Source: Bacillota bacterium | GTDB lineage: Bacteria > Bacillota > Peptococcia > Peptococcales > BICA1-8 | DNA: 64,000 bases | Assembly (NCBI GenBank): GCA_049323895.1 | Contig: JBMOKT010000017.1 | Location: 19,041-83,040, forward strand | Reading direction: 5' to 3' | Shown: positions 2,630 through 64,000 of the stretch, piece after piece | Position numbering within the stretch: position 1 is the stretch's first letter | How the letters are laid out: each line of letters starts with the position of its first letter | Notes under the pieces: generated by a model | What the model saw: only the letters and a program-made list of their open reading frames with translations | Databases searched by the model: none | What the model was told of the DNA's origin: nothing | Program-made: the position numbers and the translations under genes

Positions 2630-3463
2630 TTAATCGTCCTTTAACATAATTAGTCCGGCCAGCCTACCTGTTTTTCCGCTATAGTAACGATAAGAAAAGA
2701 GTAGTTGAGGATTGCAAAAAGTACAAATTTGGGCAACACTAATATTCGCGTCCGTTAAGCCTGCCTCCAGTAATTGCAAACGGTTTGCTTCCCATAGATT
2801 TAATTGGGCCTTGCCCTCCCCGGTGAAATTTAGAATTTTGGTCCATAGTAAGTGGCTCTCCTGAATTTTTTCTATAACCGGTTGGTCAACTTCATAATGA
2901 CAAGGTCCGATGGAAGGACATATGCCTGCTAAAATATTACCAGGATTGGAGTTAAAAGACTCCTTCATTTTTTCTACTGTTTTTGAGGCAATTTTTGCAG
3001 CAGTGCCCTTCCAACCGGCATGAATCACAGCAATGGCCTTTTGTACCGGATCCAGGAGCATAATAGGGACGCAGTCGGCATAAAAAGCAATTAAGGCTAC
3101 ACCCGGTTCATTTGTTATCAATGCATCTGTCTCCTTAATAACAGTTTCCTGTTCTAATGCGCCTTTACCACGGTCCAGCTTGCCTGCATTATAAATATTA
3201 TCCCCGTGAATCTGGTCAGCGGCAACTATATTTTCTGAAGGGATGCCAACGGCTTGGGCAAAAATTTTTCTGTTTTCCTTCACCTTCTCAAAATTATCCC
3301 CGCAATGGAAAGCAAGATTTAAGGAATCATAGGGTGTGTCACTCCTTCCCCCAATACGGGTGCTGAATCCATGCTTTACCAAGCCTGTTTCTGCAAAGGT
3401 AGGAACAATATAATATTTAACTCCGTTTTTTTCCACTAATTGAAAAGCTCCGATTATGAACAC
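2630..3463 (-). CDS. pgeF: Peptidoglycan editing factor PgeF (YfiH/YlmD, DUF152 laccase-domain family)
   Basis: Contains HGFSTRIGG, QIHG, DALIT, ADCVP and HAGWKGT motifs. The start is uncertain: the GTG at 3463 overlaps its own GGAGG, and an internal GTG about 27 nt downstream is possible. Confidence 0.85.
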   Translation of the reverse strand: MFIIGAFQLVEKNGVKYYIVPTFAETGLVKHGFSTRIGGRSDTPYDSLNLAFHCGDNFEKVKENRKIFAQAVGIPSENIVAADQIHGDNIYNAGKLDRGKGALEQETVIKETDALITNEPGVALIAFYADCVPIMLLDPVQKAIAVIHAGWKGTAAKIASKTVEKMKESFNSNPGNILAGICPSIGPCHYEVDQPVIEKIQESHLLWTKILNFTGEGKAQLNLWEANRLQLLEAGLTDANISVAQICTFCNPQLLFSYRYYSGKTGRLAGLIMLKDD

Positions 3464-4095: not shown

Positions 4096-4168
4096 ACTTA
4101 ACCAAATTCCAGTCACCCGTCACCAGTCACTTGTTTTACTAGCCACCAGCCACTAACAACTAGCCACT
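4096..4168 (-). repeat. Copy B of the GTGGCTAG/GTGACTGG element, in the nrdD-nrdG spacer
   Basis: The reverse complement reads AGTGGCTAGTTGTTAGTGGCTGGTGGCTAGTAAAACAAGTGACTGGTGACGGGTGACTGGAATTTGGTTAAGT. Confidence 0.8.
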
Positions 4169-4196: not shown

Positions 4197-6305
4197 TCAC
4201 ATATGCTTAACCCTGTTTTTCTCTTCAGCCTTTTTAGCATCATTAAATAAGTCCAAAGTTGAAAGATAGCCCGTTATCCTTCTCACCCTACTTATCCTGC
4301 CCTCGGTTCCGCAGGCGGGACAAACTTCCGTATCAATGACCCCGTTGAAACCACATTCCTTGCAAACATCTACAGGGAAGTTAACGGCAGCATAACCCAT
4401 TTCCGCTTCATACATGGCATGGATAATATTTTCAAAGGCTTCTAAATTATTAGTAGGCGCAGAAGGCAACTCTACATAGGAAATATGCCCCGCATTGCAC
4501 ATTTGGTGATACGGTCCCTCAATGTTAATTTTTTCAATAGCACCAATTTTAAAATCTACCGGTATGTGAAAGGAGTTTGTATACCATTCCTTATCAGTAA
4601 TACCAGGGAGTTCTCCAAAAAGCTTTTTATCTTTTGCTACAAATTTCCCGCTTAAACCTTCAGCCGGGGTAGCCAGAAGGGAGAAGTTAAGTTTATATTT
4701 TTGAGTGGCTTCATCACATTTTCTGCGTAAATGTCCGACAATGGAGAGCCCCAAAGCTTGCGACTCCTTGCTTTCGCCGTGGTGTTTCCCCGTTAAGGCC
4801 TTCAATGCTTCCGCTAAGCCAATAAAGCCTAAGCTTAAGGTACCATGCTTGAGAGCTTCTTCAATACAGTCATCAGCAACTAAATTTTCACTGCCCATAT
4901 AAAGCTTTTGTCCCATTAAGAAAGGAAAGTCTTTTACTTTCAACCGCTTTTGAAAATCATAGCGGGTCAGGAGCTGCTTAATGGTCAGTTCTATTACTTT
5001 ATCCAAGCTGCTCCAGAATTCGGATAAATCTCCCTTGGATTTAATGGCTAAACGGGGCAGATTTATGGTAGTAAAAGAAAGGTTGCCTCTCCCATCGGTA
5101 ACTTCTGGTCCATTTACATTTCCGATGACACGGGTCCTGCAGCCCATATAAGCTACTTCATCTTCGTATACGGCATTGAAAGCGGAATCCTGGAAAGAAA
5201 AGTTAGGGAATAATCTTTTGCAGGCAACTTTCATGCTCAAAAGAAATAAGTCATAATTGGGGTCTTCAGGGTCATAATTTATACCGTCTTTAATTTTAAA
5301 ACAAATATTAGGGAAAATTGCAGCCTCCCCCTTGCCCAGACCCTTCTCGTAAGCTTTCAAAAGCTTCTTTGTTATCATTCTTCCGCCTCTGGACGTATCA
5401 GTACCAAGATTTATAGAGGAGAAGGGCACTTGGGCACCTGCCCGGGAATGCATTGTATTCAAGTTATAAATGAATCCTTCCATAGCCTGATAAACTTCAT
5501 CTTCTACCTGTTCCTGAACTATTTCACTTATTTTTCCATCATCACTTTCTAAACCAAGGGACGCTAAAGTATCCCTTAGCATTCTTTCCTGACGGATAAA
5601 CTCTTTTTCCACATACAAACCCATATCCCTGTCAAAGAAAGCAAAAGATTGCCCTCCATGGTGGTCATTCTGGTTGCTTTGCATTATTATGGCTGCTAAA
5701 GCCGCTGCGGTCTTAATGCCTTTAGGGGGTCGGATATAACCATGTCCGTTATTGAATCCCTCTTCCAAAAGTCTTCGCAAGGGAATCTGCAGGCAGGTGG
5801 TAGTTTTGCCATACCAGGCTAAATCATGTATGTAGATATCCCCATTAATATGGGCTTCTGCCTGTTCAGCAGGAATAACTCGTTTTAAGTAATAGTCTTT
5901 GGAGGCAATCTCCGATATCTGCAGGACCTTAGCCGAGGGGGAATTGCCTACATTAGCGTTTTCCCTGCTGGTTTCCCTAAGAACTTCTGCAACAGCGTCC
6001 ATTAGCTCCGATCTGGTTTCCCTAATTCTTGTCCGTCCATCCCTGTATAATATGTAAGCCTTTGCCGTTCTAGCATGCCCTTTCTCTATTAATACTTTTT
6101 CTACAGCATCCTGGACATCCTCCACAGTAAAGACATGACCATTGAACCTTTCCTTTAAATAACGCAAAACATCAATGGTCAATTCCATGGCTGTCTGCTT
6201 ATCTTCACCACCTACAGACTTAGCCGCCTTAAAGATGGCATCGGTTATCTTTCCTTCGTTGAAACCAACTTCCCGCCCATCCCTTTTGCGAATACTTGTA
6301 AACAT
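4197..6305 (-). CDS. nrdD: Anaerobic (class III) ribonucleoside-triphosphate reductase
   Basis: 702 aa. It has an N-terminal ATP-cone, a C-terminal Zn site CKECG...CPACG and the glycyl-radical motif RVRRITGYL. Confidence 0.95.
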   Translation of the reverse strand: MFTSIRKRDGREVGFNEGKITDAIFKAAKSVGGEDKQTAMELTIDVLRYLKERFNGHVFTVEDVQDAVEKVLIEKGHARTAKAYILYRDGRTRIRETRSELMDAVAEVLRETSRENANVGNSPSAKVLQISEIASKDYYLKRVIPAEQAEAHINGDIYIHDLAWYGKTTTCLQIPLRRLLEEGFNNGHGYIRPPKGIKTAAALAAIIMQSNQNDHHGGQSFAFFDRDMGLYVEKEFIRQERMLRDTLASLGLESDDGKISEIVQEQVEDEVYQAMEGFIYNLNTMHSRAGAQVPFSSINLGTDTSRGGRMITKKLLKAYEKGLGKGEAAIFPNICFKIKDGINYDPEDPNYDLFLLSMKVACKRLFPNFSFQDSAFNAVYEDEVAYMGCRTRVIGNVNGPEVTDGRGNLSFTTINLPRLAIKSKGDLSEFWSSLDKVIELTIKQLLTRYDFQKRLKVKDFPFLMGQKLYMGSENLVADDCIEEALKHGTLSLGFIGLAEALKALTGKHHGESKESQALGLSIVGHLRRKCDEATQKYKLNFSLLATPAEGLSGKFVAKDKKLFGELPGITDKEWYTNSFHIPVDFKIGAIEKINIEGPYHQMCNAGHISYVELPSAPTNNLEAFENIIHAMYEAEMGYAAVNFPVDVCKECGFNGVIDTEVCPACGTEGRISRVRRITGYLSTLDLFNDAKKAEEKNRVKHM

Positions 6306-6308
6306 CTT

Positions 6309-6776
6309 CTATTCCCTCCTATTACCTGTCCGTAAGAGACCTTCAATCTCTTTTATAAACGTATTAATATCCTTAAACTCCCTGTATACGGAAGCAAATC
6401 TAACATAAGAAACCTCATCCAATTCCTTTAGCTTGTCCATAACTAATTCACCAATCAAGGAAGAACTCACTTCCCTTTCCATACGGTTTCTAATATCCCT
6501 TTCAATTTCCTCAGTAACCCTTTCTAAAGCACGAGAAGAAACAGGCCTTTTCTCACACGCCTTAATTAAGCCATTTAAGATTTTGGTGGTTTCGAAAACT
6601 TCCCTCTTGCCATCTTTTTTAACTACTAATAAAGGTACATCTTCAATCTTTTCGTAGGTAGTAAACCTTTTAGAGCATTCCCCACATTCCCTGCGACGCC
6701 TAATGGAATTTCCTTCGTCTGCAGAACGTGTATCCAAAACTTTGGTGTCAAAAAAACCGCAAAATGGACAACGCAT
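6309..6776 (-). CDS. nrdR: Transcriptional repressor NrdR
   Basis: MRCPFCG...[12 protein letters not shown] zinc ribbon plus an ATP-cone. It lies 3 nt upstream of nrdD. Confidence 0.95.
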
Positions 6777-6919
6777 TTTGTTTCACTCCCATTAATAAAA
6801 TTAGGGGCAAGTAAACTTTGGGTAGATTTTTTGGAAAAGTTTTTTAGAAATCTTAGAGGGTTTTTCTGCCTGCAGCTAGAACATAGATTGTATGTATATA
6901 GAGTAAAAACACACAAATG

Positions 6920-7527: not shown

Positions 7528-8154
7528 CTAAATTATTCTCCAAACCCCGGAAAAAAGTTGGAGGAAATTATGCCAAATCCGTTTAGGGGCGCCTAATGGT
7601 TCATTACTTTTTTCCTTAGATATTTTTGAATTTAAAGTTGGTACCGTCTTCTCATCTAAAACTAAAGACTTTTCAACTTTTTTTACCCAATCGCCATGAC
7701 AGATTGGAGGATAAAGAACACACCACCAATTGCCTCCTTTTCCTTCTCCAATTATTATCTTTAAAGCCATGTATTCACCAGCAGGCAAGACCAGTGAGTT
7801 ACTATATCTGCGCGCAGGAAACCTGCTTTTTCCCAATTCAATTTTTACTTTGTAGTTAAAGCCTTTATTTTCAATGTATTTTTCGATATGTTTTTTTTGC
7901 GCTCTGCTATTTTTGTTAATATAAGAGGAGACCTGATTTATGTTTTTAAGCTCCTTTAATTCAGCCATCTCCCTGAGTACTAAGTCCCTTATTTCTAATT
8001 TAAGGTTTTGATCTTCAGGACTGTCAGAATTTGCAATTATATGTAGGCGAATGATATCCTTCTCGACTTCATCGGCAATCAAGGGCTGATTTAAGCTCAA
8101 ACTCAAAAATATCAAAAAAACAATTGCGCTAAGCTTTAACTTCAAATTCAACAC
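7528..8154 (-). CDS. spoIIR: Stage II sporulation protein R (signal for pro-sigma-E processing)
   Basis: It has a signal/TM segment and then IRLHIIANSDSPEDQNLKLEIRDLVL, the SpoIIR family signature. Confidence 0.85.
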   Translation of the reverse strand: MLNLKLKLSAIVFLIFLSLSLNQPLIADEVEKDIIRLHIIANSDSPEDQNLKLEIRDLVLREMAELKELKNINQVSSYINKNSRAQKKHIEKYIENKGFNYKVKIELGKSRFPARRYSNSLVLPAGEYMALKIIIGEGKGGNWWCVLYPPICHGDWVKKVEKSLVLDEKTVPTLNSKISKEKSNEPLGAPKRIWHNFLQLFSGVWRII

Positions 8155-8997: not shown

Positions 8998-9099
8998 CAG
9001 GCAAAGGATAAAAATGGCTAAAATGGTTAAAGTCCTTTCATTCGGAGATTTGTGAATTTAGTAAAAAAACTTCAAATTGAATTTCTTTAGTGCCCAGTG

Positions 9100-9174
9100 G
9101 GGGGTGTCAGGGGACGGTTCTCTGTCACGGCTTGCGCCGAAGGGCGTGACAGAGAACCGTCCCCTGACACCCCC
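9100..9174. repeat. 30-bp perfect GC-rich inverted repeat with a 15-nt loop, between sigE and sigG
   Basis: GGGGGTGTCAGGGGACGGTTCTCTGTCACG (9100-9129) pairs perfectly with CGTGACAGAGAACCGTCCCCTGACACCCCC (9145-9174). The loop is GCTTGCGCCGAAGGG. Confidence 0.9.
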
Positions 9175-9195
9175 GACACCATAAATAAATACGAC

Positions 9196-30186: not shown

Positions 30187-30303
30187 CTCCTTCCAGCCAT
30201 TCTAGCACAACGCAAATATAAAGGCGGAGTATATTCTTTACTTTATATGCAGCATCATGAAAAGATGTTACAACTGCTCCCTTTAGAAGATAATCCTGGT
30301 GAC

Positions 30304-30447: not shown

Positions 30448-30905
30448 GGGTCTGACAATACTAATAATGCGATACTTGGGGTCTGTCTTGGTCAGTTTAT
30501 TGCGTCTGATATACTTCTCGGTCAATTTATTGCGTCCGATATACTTGAGGGTCTAGCTGTTGCGTCTGACATGAACTTTTTGGTCAGTCTATTTCGTCTG
30601 ACATACTTAAGGGTTTAGCTGTTGCGTCTGACACAAGCATTGCATGTTAATCCAAAAGTAGTCAGACTAACAATCTTACTCTGAAGTATATCAGACTAAA
30701 AATGTCCACCCAGAAGCAATTGTCAGACTAGCAATGTTTACCCATTAGAATATCAGACTAACAATGTCACCCAAAAGTATATCAGACCAGTAATCTTCAC
30801 CTAAAAGCAAATCAGACTAGCAATGTTGACTATGAAGAATTGTCAGACGCTCAATCTTCACCCAGAAGTTTATCTGGCAAGCAATCTTCACCCTGAAGTA
30901 AGATC
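30448..30905. repeat. Head-to-head array of about 15 degenerate 28-33-bp units (locus 1)
   Basis: About 6 units of type GGTCAnTTTATTGCGTCTGATATACTT occupy 30448-30638. The centre (30639-30653) contains AAGCATTGCATG. About 8.5 units of type AAGTATATCAGACTAaCAATcTTCACCC occupy 30654-30905. Confidence 0.9.
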
Positions 30906-34568: not shown

Positions 34569-34642
34569 AGTGGCTAGTTGTTAGTGGCTAGTGGCTAGAA
34601 AAATAAGTGACTGGTGCACTAGTTTGATAGTTTGATAGTTGG
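34569..34642 (+). repeat. Copy C of the GTGGCTAG/GTGACTGG element
   Basis: AGTGGCTAGTTGTTAGTGGCTAGTGGCTAGAAAAATAAGTGACTGGTGCACTAGTTTGATAGTTTGATAG. Confidence 0.8.
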
Positions 34643-34800
34643 CATCTGCTTCTGGGTGAAAATTGTTAGTCCGATTACCTTTAGGAGTAGCTTGCAATGC
34701 TTGTGTCAGACGCAATAAATTGACCAAGAAGTATTCAGACTAAAAAGCTAGACCCTTAAGTACATCAGACCCAACAGCTAAACCCTTAAGTATAATTATA
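34643..34800. repeat. Short head-to-head array of the ~30-bp unit family (locus 2)
   Basis: One unit CTGGGTGAAAATTGTTAGTCCGATTACC is followed by the centre GCTTGCAATGCTT, which is the reverse complement of the locus-1 centre. Three to four opposite units follow: GTGTCAGACGCAATAAATTGACC, AAGTATTCAGACTAAAAAGCTAGACCC, TTAAGTACATCAGACCCAACAGCTAAACCC. Confidence 0.85.
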
Positions 34801-41379: not shown

Positions 41380-41606
41380 GGTATTCTCCCTCCTTCAAAT
41401 TTAGAACAAAATTCGTTGATTGGTCTGTTCGTCAAGTCGTCTTTTCGCTCTATATCTGTACTAAAAATAGTTATTGGTGACTGGTGACTAATAAAAATAA
41501 TTAATATATCTGTGTCCACCCGTGTGTGAAAGTCATCCGTGGCTAAATTTTCTCTTTCGACTGGTGCTTGCAACATGTGGGTCTGTGGCCCTGGATCATT
41601 CTCATG

Positions 41607-62434: not shown

Positions 62435-63046
62435 TTAAAAAATGCTAGACCAGATGGCATAGACTCCAAAACCGGCAATAACAGTACCTGAGAACCTATT
62501 GATAAGTCTTAGGCCTCCTTCAGTGACTTTATTTTTGACCAAACCAACTCCCTGGCTCAGGATAAACCACCACAAGGCAGAACCCATAAATACCCCTGCA
62601 ACCAAAGTTGCCGCCGCAGCATAGCTGCTATCAACCATAGCAACACCCAGACCGGCAAAAACAGCAATATAATATATGATGGCAATAGGATTGGTAATGG
62701 CAACAATAAAGGAAGAAGCAAAAGCAGTCAATAAACCATAGCCTGTTGCTGAAGCGTCATCTACTGCAGGCTTAGTGATAAATATCTTATAGCCTAGATA
62801 GATGATAAAGGTTCCCCCAATAAGACGGAAAATATTTTGCTGACTAACCAGAAAATTAGAAATCATTGTCAAACCAAAGCCTCCTATGGAGGCATAAATT
62901 AAATCTGTGACTGCAGCACCCATTCCTGTCACAAAACCATATAATCTGCCCCCGGCTAAGGTTCTCCTGATGCACAAAACCCCTATGGGACCTACAGGTG
63001 CAGCTATTGACAAACCAATTATAAATCCTTGCAGCCAAATTTCCAT
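62435..63046 (-). CDS. LysE/RhtB-family amino-acid exporter
   Basis: Contains GLSIAAPVGPIGVLCIRRTL and about 6 TM segments. Confidence 0.85.
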   Translation of the reverse strand: MEIWLQGFIIGLSIAAPVGPIGVLCIRRTLAGGRLYGFVTGMGAAVTDLIYASIGGFGLTMISNFLVSQQNIFRLIGGTFIIYLGYKIFITKPAVDDASATGYGLLTAFASSFIVAITNPIAIIYYIAVFAGLGVAMVDSSYAAAATLVAGVFMGSALWWFILSQGVGLVKNKVTEGGLRLINRFSGTVIAGFGVYAIWSSIF

Positions 63047-63069
63047 AAAAACACCTTCTTATATTTTTT

Positions 63070-63430
63070 TAAGGAATTCATTCTATGTCAGTTATATCTA
63101 AAAGGATTCATTTTTGGTCAGTTTCTTGCTCACGGGATTCATTGTTGATTAGTTAGTTCTAGTGGGATTCATGCTTTGTCAGTTATTTCTTAAGGGATTC
63201 ATTTTGAGTCAGTTATATCTGTGTGATTCATTGTTTGTAAGTTACTTCTATTGTAATCTTCGATTGTCAGTTAAAAACTGACTAACAATGTTCACCTAGA
63301 AGCATCAACTGACTAACAATCTCAACCCTTAAGCATTGTCTGACTAGCAATCTACACCCATTAGCCTTATCTGACTAGCAATCTTCACCCAAAAGCATTA
63401 TCTGACCTACAATGTTTACCCATTAGCCTT
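63070..63430. repeat. Head-to-head array of about 12 units of the ~30-bp family (locus 3)
   Basis: About 7 units of type GGGATTCATTTTGAGTCAGTTATATCT occupy 63070-63262. The centre is ATTGTCAGTT-AAAA-ACTGACTAACAAT. About 5.5 opposite units of type TTAAGCATTGTCTGACTAGCAATCTTCACCC run to 63430. Confidence 0.9.
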
Positions 63431-64000
63431 GAGCCTTTCTGCTAACTTCGTATTCCGCTGGCTGACGGTGTTATTTTTCACTGCCATGGCAAGGGCTCTG
63501 GCTGAACCGACCAATACCAGCACTTTTTTGGCCCTGGTCACACATGTGTATAGGAGGTTTCTCTGCAGCATCATATAGTGCTGTGTAACCAAAGGAGCTA
63601 CTACAATCTTATACTCACTCCCCTGGCTTTTATGTACTGTAGTAGCATAGGCCAGTACAACTTCATCCAGTTCAGTCACATCATATTCTACGTCTACGTC
63701 ATCAAATCTGATTTTTACCTGTTTATCTTCCAGATCAATATGGGTTATCCGGCCGATATCACCATTAAAAACATTTTTCTCATAATTATTCTTAATCTGC
63801 ATTACTTTATCATAAAGCTTATACTTAACGCCCCCATTATTAAGAAATGTATTGTTGGGGTTTAACGCCTCCTGCAAAACTTCATTAAGGTTGCGTGCCC
63901 CTGCCTCCCCCCTCTGCATGGGGGTAATGACCTGTATATCACCTACTGGATCCACTCTGTAAAAGGCAGGTAGTCTTGTCTTGCAGAGGGATTTTATATG
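63416..64000 (-). CDS. recD2: RecD2-type SF1 DNA helicase, C-terminal part; the 5' end runs off the right edge
   Basis: Contains ATTVHKSQGSEYKIVV (helicase motif VI region) and LLYTCVTRAKK. The frame stays open to position 64000. Confidence 0.85.
   Translation of the reverse strand, partial: HIKSLCKTRLPAFYRVDPVGDIQVITPMQRGEAGARNLNEVLQEALNPNNTFLNNGGVKYKLYDKVMQIKNNYEKNVFNGDIGRITHIDLEDKQVKIRFDDVDVEYDVTELDEVVLAYATTVHKSQGSEYKIVVAPLVTQHYMMLQRNLLYTCVTRAKKVLVLVGSARALAMAVKNNTVSQRNTKLAERLKANG

Follow-up and report, generated by a model that had tools for sequence, protein, structure and literature searches.

Families of intergenic repeats in bacteria, among them the REP/BIME, BOX, MIRU and Correia elements, have yielded tools for typing, have proved to be regulators of mRNA fate and have served as models for selfish DNA. 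BIMEs bind DNA gyrase and IHF, pneumococcal BOX elements contain boxA and boxC modules, and the STRRs of cyanobacteria are short tandemly repeated heptamers. At each end of a Tn7-, Mu- or IS21-type element, several sites of 20-30 bp for transposase binding follow one another in the same direction. The MIRUs (mycobacterial interspersed repetitive units) were reportedly described by Supply et al. (1997). REPINs have been described (PMC3116915), as have REPs tagged with GTAG or CGTC (PMC3733652), and direct repeats of TAACTGA are found in Beggiatoaceae, Cyanobacteria and Bacteroidetes (PMC4679880).

Here, a two-armed array that fills the gap between recD2 and a lysE-family exporter gene is compared with these systems. 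It belongs to a family that is apparently an undescribed kind of non-coding DNA, to be placed among the lineage-specific intergenic repeat families; literature searches by organism, topic and sequence motif (full text) found no description of such arrays. The architecture of the family is apparently new in that it combines unstructured polar units, strict head-to-head arms and orthologous persistence across what reads as saturated divergence, and its hosts are a few uncultured subsurface Bacillota.

The recD2-lysE array and its sister loci

In the window, i.e. the whole 64-kb stretch of DNA that was analysed, two rows of ~30-base repeats that point apart (63066-63432) fill the spacer of ~360-369 nt between recD2 and lysE, reaching from the recD2 stop to within ~10 nt of the lysE ribosome-binding site. 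Both genes are on the minus strand: the upstream gene is the 3' part of recD2 (63416-64000; Pfam HHH_RecD2, AAA_30, SH3_13 and UvrD_C_2), which runs off the end of the window, and the downstream gene is the lysE-family exporter gene (62435-63046; LysE, PF01810). The recD2 gene ends in a TAA (63416-63418, minus strand) that belongs to GCTAATGGGTAA in the right arm's outermost unit, and a putative lysE ribosome-binding site read from the sequence, GAAGGTG (63052-63058, minus strand), lies just beyond the last left unit.

The left, lysE-proximal arm (63066-63275, minus strand) comprises seven 30-bp units when read in register, with the minus-strand consensus TAACTGAC-N5-ATGAATCCC-N3-AGAA; its two innermost units (63216-63275) are degenerate. 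The right, recD2-proximal arm (63278-63432, plus strand) comprises five 31-bp units with the consensus CTGACTARCAATSTTCACCC-N3-AGC-N-TTAT. Tandem Repeats Finder reported the left arm at 63071-63250 (period 30, 6.0 copies, score 141) and the right arm at 63278-63427 (period 31, 4.8 copies, score 160). The sequence-only reading of this DNA had described an array of two facing arms between these genes, which is confirmed; its count of about seven left units also holds, and its 5.5 right units become five. The arms belong to different subtypes, GAATCCC and TTCACCC (subtype strings ATGAATCCC, period 30, and CAATSTTCACCC, period 31), and because both subtype and period differ they are not copies of each other. 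At the centre (63263-63289) the innermost units of the two arms meet head to head as GTCAGTT (63266-63272), AAA and AACTGAC (63276-63282). The symmetric core has 7 bp on each side of AAA, and the near-perfect centre that had been proposed is an overstatement: symmetry beyond 7 bp requires a 2-nt bulge, and 20-nt arms are only 70% complementary.

An independent Logan assembly (L001) is 100% identical to the window across 5862 nt, array included, which shows that the array is no assembly artefact. With up to three mismatches, the right-arm consensus CTGACTARCAATSTTCACCC has nine matches in the window, all within three array loci, where 0.01 matches would be expected by chance (shuffles). The three sense frames of the recD2|lysE gap (369 nt) hold 41 stop codons, with a longest open stretch of 30 codons; the arrays in general have many stop codons and all six frames closed, and a coding repeat was rejected on these grounds. 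No Rfam covariance model matched anywhere in the window at the gathering threshold, or in 62950-63550 at E <= 1.

A unit-profile search of the 64-kb window gave significant matches only at 30486-30900, 34647-34793 and 63068-63427, and no solo units or doublets. Two of these three loci lie inside the dcw (division and cell-wall) operon. In the murG|murC gap, the first (30486-30900) has ~5 minus-orientation and 8 plus-orientation units, with the murG stop codon inside the last unit, and both the conserved leader motif of murC and its own promoter-like site lie downstream of the array. In the mraY|murD gap, the second (34647-34793) has 1 minus-orientation and 3 plus-orientation units, the mraY stop codon again lies inside the last unit, and heptamer repeats adjoin at 34569-34640.

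Two other features of the window were recorded. The motif GCATATAAAGTA(A/G)(A/G)GA(A/G)CA is found ~50-150 nt upstream of murC in the window (30232-30250, minus strand) and in all relatives (L002 ~11290, L005 ~11445 and L006 ~6880; also L249, L250 and L251), and may be a leader or regulatory element of murC. In the window it is preceded by a good promoter-like site, TTGACA-16-AATAAT (30332-30305), which does not occur at such a distance in the relatives. At 9097-9177 there is an inverted repeat with 40-nt arms, 90% complementary and 1 nt apart (GTGGGGGGTGTCAGGGGACGGTTCTCTGTCACG...), in a 280-nt gap (gap z -8.4) just downstream of a terminator-like hairpin; its sequence is unrelated to the 30-mer family.

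All convincing arrays in the window and its relatives are intergenic. They generally begin overlapping or within ~10 nt of the upstream stop codon, and their far ends lie 10-60 nt ahead of the downstream start codon. Both neighbours could be called for 22 arrays (simple longest-ORF calls in the fetched loci), and 18 of these lie between co-directional, 2 between divergent and 2 between convergent genes, which is roughly what a gene-dense Firmicute chromosome offers. The neighbours are varied (dcw genes, recD2/lysE, alr and, by eye, a probable nucleotidyltransferase/HEPN-like pair) and there is no link between the arrays and neighbour gene function. In arrays 1 and 3 and their surroundings, sites resembling promoters or terminators are no more frequent than in shuffles, so arrays of promoters or terminators were rejected. 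Separately, in L124 a one-armed array is directly duplicated ~1.07 kb apart (6600-6800 and 7690-7880; = L194), each copy with a conserved 60-nt upstream segment and downstream heptamers; the copies flank two small minus-strand ORFs that by eye resemble a nucleotidyltransferase/HEPN-like pair.

Unit skeleton, spread and age

The units have a polar skeleton in common, (G/A)TCWGAC-N5-A-N2-T-N2-ACCC-N3-AG-N-A. Across 82 distinct units from at least four genomes, C3, G5, A6, C7, A13, T16, C20, A26, G27 and A29 are invariant or nearly so and the positions between skeleton bases vary freely, a degree of conservation inflated by ascertainment since units were detected with a profile and the pattern GTCAGACGCAA. 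The sole palindromic part of the unit is the 7-nt palindrome GTCWGAC, and the difference between CTGAC and CAGAC cores that had been noticed between loci is the central W of this palindrome. Unit length is 30-32 bp in all arrays, near three helical turns, and some arms alternate two unit subtypes, giving a period of 61-62 bp.

Units are direct tandem repeats within an arm and each array has one orientation switch. Every arm junction is minus-then-plus (20 minus-to-plus and 0 plus-to-minus; 19 when one duplicated locus is discounted), and thus the TCWGAC ends always face the centre; further arm pairs have centres of 150-220 nt between them. Centres range from 5 to >200 nt. They are frequently asymmetric, with ACAAGCWTTG and CACGATTTTA on opposite sides, and frequently contain heptamer repeats. 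When centres were read by hand, their orientation relative to transcription was mixed in both ++ and -- contexts. Neither a common terminus nor a target-site duplication was found at the outer ends and flanks of 45 arm ends. Unit quality has no gradient outward from the centre such as polar growth would produce (mean scores of 18.6 for inner, 17.6 for middle and 17.9 for outer units).

The architecture also accounts for an orientation effect that the sequence-only reading had put down to function or insertion bias. In mRNA sense, GGGT...GTCWGA is indeed what the arm beside the upstream gene shows at all three loci, but this is a consequence of the architecture: because the minus arm is always on the left and the plus arm on the right, the arm at a gene end reads antisense whichever way the gene points, and two-armed arrays cannot separate gene-relative orientation from intrinsic symmetry. 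The narrower claim, that the ...CAAT.TTCACCC subtype is gene-proximal at all three loci, breaks down at locus 2, where the distal side is one TTCACCC-type unit (34647-34675, minus strand) and units of the AGCTARACCC type make up the arm nearest mraY. Arm-length asymmetry, for which a test of correlation with transcription had been suggested, has no such bias; by a hand tally the upstream side had more units in 9 arrays, fewer in 6 and an equal number in 3.

The nearest relatives of the window, with MurG 69-73% identical, are Peptococcaceae-type MAGs, and the family is present in at least two further genus-level relatives. In GCA_049366715.1 the mraY|murD gap holds a large homogeneous array with assembly gaps (L005 6700-7410, with two N runs inside, >10 units in one arm and >6 in the other). 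The family is also carried by 'Clostridiaceae bacterium BRH_c20a', which comes from Opalinus Clay and has housekeeping proteins 60-70% identical to those of the window, and by ~20 metagenome loci, although one organism (BRH_c20a / Ga0209643) is the source of many of the array loci. Orthologous loci across samples are all 100% identical, and the presence or absence of an array at mraY|murD and at murG|murC differs among relatives.

In the genome collection, a first pattern (CWGACTARCAATSTTYACCC) had no match. A second, with TCWGAC three times at a spacing of 30-32 bp, gave at least 120 matches, mostly chance, and among the matches listed for it only two BRH_c20a contigs are real; the known taxonomic range is therefore a lower bound. 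The phage, plasmid and viral collections gave no matches to the family, three viral pattern matches being unrelated repeats with periods of 15, 19 and 42, and a phage, plasmid or viral origin was rejected. Array calls in L153, L227 and L165 (56-58% G+C), in L191 (43%) and in L156 and L199 (25-bp repeat) were set aside as false positives. L156 and L199, termite-gut-type metagenome contigs to judge by their Ga01233xx names, carry long unidirectional arrays of TATATTGYGTCTGAACACTGT; this repeat has GCGTCTGA in common with the family, is otherwise different and was treated as unrelated.

The synteny of recD2 and lysE is kept in three relatives. In L246 (GCA_049366715.1), whose LysE and RecD2 have 74% and 72% amino-acid identity to those of the window, the recD2|lysE gap is 172 nt long and contains a shorter array with a largely degenerate proximal arm. 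This array has the subtype of the window locus, CTGAC-N3-7-ATGAATC, which is multi-copy only at the two orthologous recD2|lysE gaps in the 1.7 Mb searched. At roughly fourfold-degenerate third positions the window and L246 are 35-41% identical, which is read as near saturation, and from the persistence of the orthologous subtype across such synonymous sites it follows that the array predates the species split. Furthermore, GCTAATGGGTRA at the recD2 stop is conserved in the window and L246 yet is read in different frames, which shows that the units are constrained as nucleotide sequence. On this comparison the recD2|lysE array is both old and sequence-constrained.

Arrays also lengthen gene 3' ends or take their place. 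An array unit supplies the final codons of recD2 (window 63416-63432, L246 9815-9835), and a 1-nt indel in the common string makes the gene stop as GCT AAT GGG TAA in the window and as AGC TAA TGGGTGA in L246. Where arrays abut them, murG and mraY also differ in their C-terminal tails from relative to relative.

Arrays at different loci are at most ~80-90% identical across 2-5 units, in agreement with the earlier view that the loci are diverged subfamilies and not recent copies. The sole match of 97.6% between arrays is an 82-nt centre segment in two neighbouring arrays. With between-array likeness of 80-90%, no target-site duplications and no conserved termini, there is no sign of recent transposition. 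Within arms, blocks of 2-3 units recur as higher-order repeats and identical units occur in runs, from which it follows that arms grow by local tandem duplication; arrays of this kind break short-read assemblies, as with the N gaps in L005. In L189, two arrays (2778-3271 and 6101-6410) flank one 2.75-kb gene, with the 82-nt centre segment inverted.

Elsewhere the same gaps are filled differently. The recD2|lysE gap of L247 and L248 holds heptamer repeats instead of 30-mers, and the dcw gaps of further relatives hold tandem repeats of 7-10 nt and no 30-mers. At the loci compared, arrays are lacking from the sisters GCA_030446105.1, BICA1-8 (GCA_000802045.1) and a JGI SAHD metagenome contig. Tandem heptamer and 8-mer repeats reminiscent of STRRs (AGTGGCT, CCAGTCA, TGGTGAC, TAGTTTGA and others) occur in many intergenic gaps of the clade, for example at 677-705, 4109-4130, 34569-34640 and 41475-41489 in the window and at L006 2530-2560 and 2870-2900, L247 9830-10000, L248 9850-10000 and L249 2978-3052 in relatives. 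Those of L006 make up a pair of inverted arms bracketing the mraY|murD gap (fold z -5.0).

Explanations of the arrays

The arrays are quite possibly, if short of probably, rows of binding sites on duplex DNA for a sequence-specific protein. Binding to duplex DNA is favoured because it is the skeleton and its polarity that are conserved across loci and species, and not pairing: a ~28-bp polar skeleton recurs every 30-32 bp, alike in both arms, across loci, genus-level lineages and an orthologous site, which fits recognition of duplex DNA better than an RNA structure or a purely neutral satellite. Under this proposal a putative sequence-specific protein of the lineage would occupy one putative site per ~three helical turns, in two oppositely oriented sets, and transcripts would owe their hairpin potential to this arrangement as a by-product. 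The array is an old resident of its gap, with a copy number that shifts via local tandem duplication, and it might serve to organise or insulate transcription units or might be a domesticated transposon-end-like element. A more ambitious version holds that the arrays are cis-acting platforms for a lineage-specific DNA-binding protein that mark or insulate gene boundaries, including those of the dcw operon, and that selection has maintained them since before the genus-level split. This version is rather doubtful; if true, the arrays would be a new class of bacterial chromosomal element and not a REP- or MITE-type parasite.

Several observations weigh against the binding model. Sister genomes fill the same gaps with heterogeneous tandem repeats of 7-10 nt, which cannot all be the sites of one protein and therefore point to a tendency of the lineage as a whole towards repeats. 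In the L246 ortholog the proximal arm has largely degenerated, and a weak trend in strand stability (below) favours a role in RNA. Arms with at least 10 sites and near-identical neighbours, as in L193 and L005, look more like satellite dynamics than a tuned binding array. Should a cognate protein exist, it would represent a new DNA-recognition system at gene boundaries; should there be none, the arrays would be a clean case of satellite-like evolution in a compact genome.

The main rival is a selfish or neutral minisatellite, which is somewhat unlikely. A mobile head-to-head doublet, MITE- or REPIN-like, would have seeded each locus and its halves would then have been expanded by slippage or unequal exchange. 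The resulting array would have no host function and would be tolerated nowhere but in the space separating a stop codon from the next ribosome-binding site. The higher-order repeats of 2-3 units, the runs of identical units and the assembly gaps inside arrays are as such a history would predict, and a fixed doublet would explain the invariant polarity. Arrays that come and go among relatives at mraY|murD and murG|murC, that run into gene 3' ends and provide the stop codon, and that have unit subtypes in common between different loci are equally in keeping with it, as is a clade that accumulates short tandem repeats in such gaps; even the unlikeness of partner arms fits a survival bias against long perfect palindromes. 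Against it, target-site duplications and conserved termini are absent from 45 arm ends, near-identical copies are absent from different loci, the 64-kb window has no solo units or doublets, and no parent element was found, with no matches in the phage, plasmid and viral collections. The ortholog, moreover, keeps its unit subtype despite saturated synonymous sites, which is unexpected for neutral DNA.

An RNA element in the operon mRNA is unlikely. It would be either a long imperfect hairpin from the stop codon to the ribosome-binding site, with a role in processing, stability or translational coupling, or a sense arm that acts as a platform for an RNA-binding protein. The placement would suit it, as arrays abut stop codons and end 10-60 nt before the starts of mostly co-directional genes, and by architecture sense units precede every gene start and antisense units follow every gene end. 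Compared with shuffles, whole arrays have fold z values of -4.2 at recD2|lysE and -6.0 at locus 1, whereas single arms fold no better and frequently worse (z up to +2.8), and the inverted heptamer arms of L006 point the same way. Of 17 arrays, 12 fold more stably as the sense strand than as the antisense strand, a trend that is not significant (p = 0.065).

The folding of whole arrays nevertheless follows from the common skeleton of inverted units. Single units form no hairpin (eight representatives, 0 to -0.4 kcal/mol as DNA, no better than shuffles), and a hairpin within each unit was rejected. On average, units of one arm are 78% identical to each other and 69% identical to those of the partner arm, while arms taken from other arrays are 71-74% alike, above the value for partners (permutation p about 1e-4, in a test controlled for the manner of array detection). 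Partner arms are less complementary than random pairs, and the pairing energy is -32.9 kcal/mol for real partners and -35.5 kcal/mol for chimeric ones. The L246 ortholog has kept its units, yet it folds no better than shuffles (z +1.2). Since partners are less alike, chimeras fold as well and the ortholog lacks hairpin potential, arm pairing does not look selected, and the emphasis that the sequence-only reading had placed on cruciforms and hairpins is not borne out. In addition, a hairpin needs no skeleton common to different loci, arrays occur between divergent and convergent genes too, array 1 lies upstream of murC's own promoter-like site, and Rfam is without a match at the recD2|lysE array even at E <= 1.

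A DNA cruciform, in which the two arms extrude and act as a structural signal, is highly improbable. The inverted arrangement and the short palindromic centre (63266-63282) bring it to mind, but with arms 69% alike on average and unequal periods (30 vs 31) a cruciform would be full of mismatches, the centres of 5 to >200 nt are frequently asymmetric, and partner arms avoid similarity. Still less credible is another class of array, be it a degenerate CRISPR, the iterons or centromere of a plasmid or phage, or a type III antitoxin RNA array, for although the tandem units of ~30 nt and the 61-62-bp period of some arms recall these, the units are contiguous and all related and so leave no spacers, the neighbours are housekeeping genes and not cas, rep, par or toxin genes, 64 kb of chromosome hold several arrays, and the phage and plasmid collections hold no matches.

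Comparison with known systems

Some repeat classes resemble the arrays only in outline. CRISPR arrays differ in that the units here are contiguous and of one family, and the periods of 61-62 bp are alternating subtypes. Unlike iteron, centromere or origin arrays, the arrays are flanked by recD2, lysE and dcw genes, three occur in 64 kb, and there is no plasmid or phage match. MITEs have inverted ends as the arrays have inverted arms, but conserved termini and target-site duplications are absent (45 arm ends), as are near-identical dispersed copies, the best matches between loci being 80-90%. With STRRs and TAACTGA repeats the arrays have in common that they are intergenic tandem fill, frequently near start codons and with a patchy phylogenetic spread; the units of those repeats are 7 nt and not 30-32 nt long, and heptamers vary by locus whereas the 30-mers keep one skeleton.

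Among longer-unit minisatellites, BrickBuilt of Porphyromonas gingivalis (PMC4596501) and pneumococcal BOX are alike in being spacer-less and intergenic, with 23-45-bp units, variable copies and restriction to one lineage. Each of those is one unidirectional array between leader and tail modules (boxA/boxC) with inverted ends, whereas the arrays have two opposed arms and no conserved outer modules. MIRUs likewise consist of tandem units of tens of bp in intercistronic operon gaps, abut or overlap the upstream stop and vary in copy number, but their units all point one way with respect to transcription and contain small ORFs that run into the stop and start codons on either side, while the arrays are two-armed and closed in all six frames.

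The ends of Tn7-, Mu- and IS21-type elements, and IR/DR elements, match the arrays in having several direct-orientation sites per end, ends that are inverted and non-identical, and a fixed polarity. The arrays have no transposase gene, target-site duplication, conserved terminal nucleotides or recent copies; they can, unlike such ends, run to at least 10 contiguous units, and they persist at orthologous loci.

Like REPs, BIMEs and REPINs, the arrays are lineage-specific, non-coding and intergenic, and are frequently found just past stop codons inside operons. As with REPs and BIMEs, they form clusters with inverted members whose position can persist between related species. REPs, however, are hairpin-forming palindromes and the array units are unstructured; REP orientation alternates within clusters, while array units are direct tandem repeats with a single switch per array. 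REPs go with a RAYT gene (an IS200-like Y1 transposase), and the array family is not known to have one. The REP tag CGTC is present in the reverse strand of GCAA-type units (TTGCGTCTGAC) and absent from the recD2|lysE units (CTGACTA / CTGAC-N5-ATGAATC). BIMEs are protein-binding DNA sites, and in this they are like the rows of binding sites that the arrays are proposed here to be.
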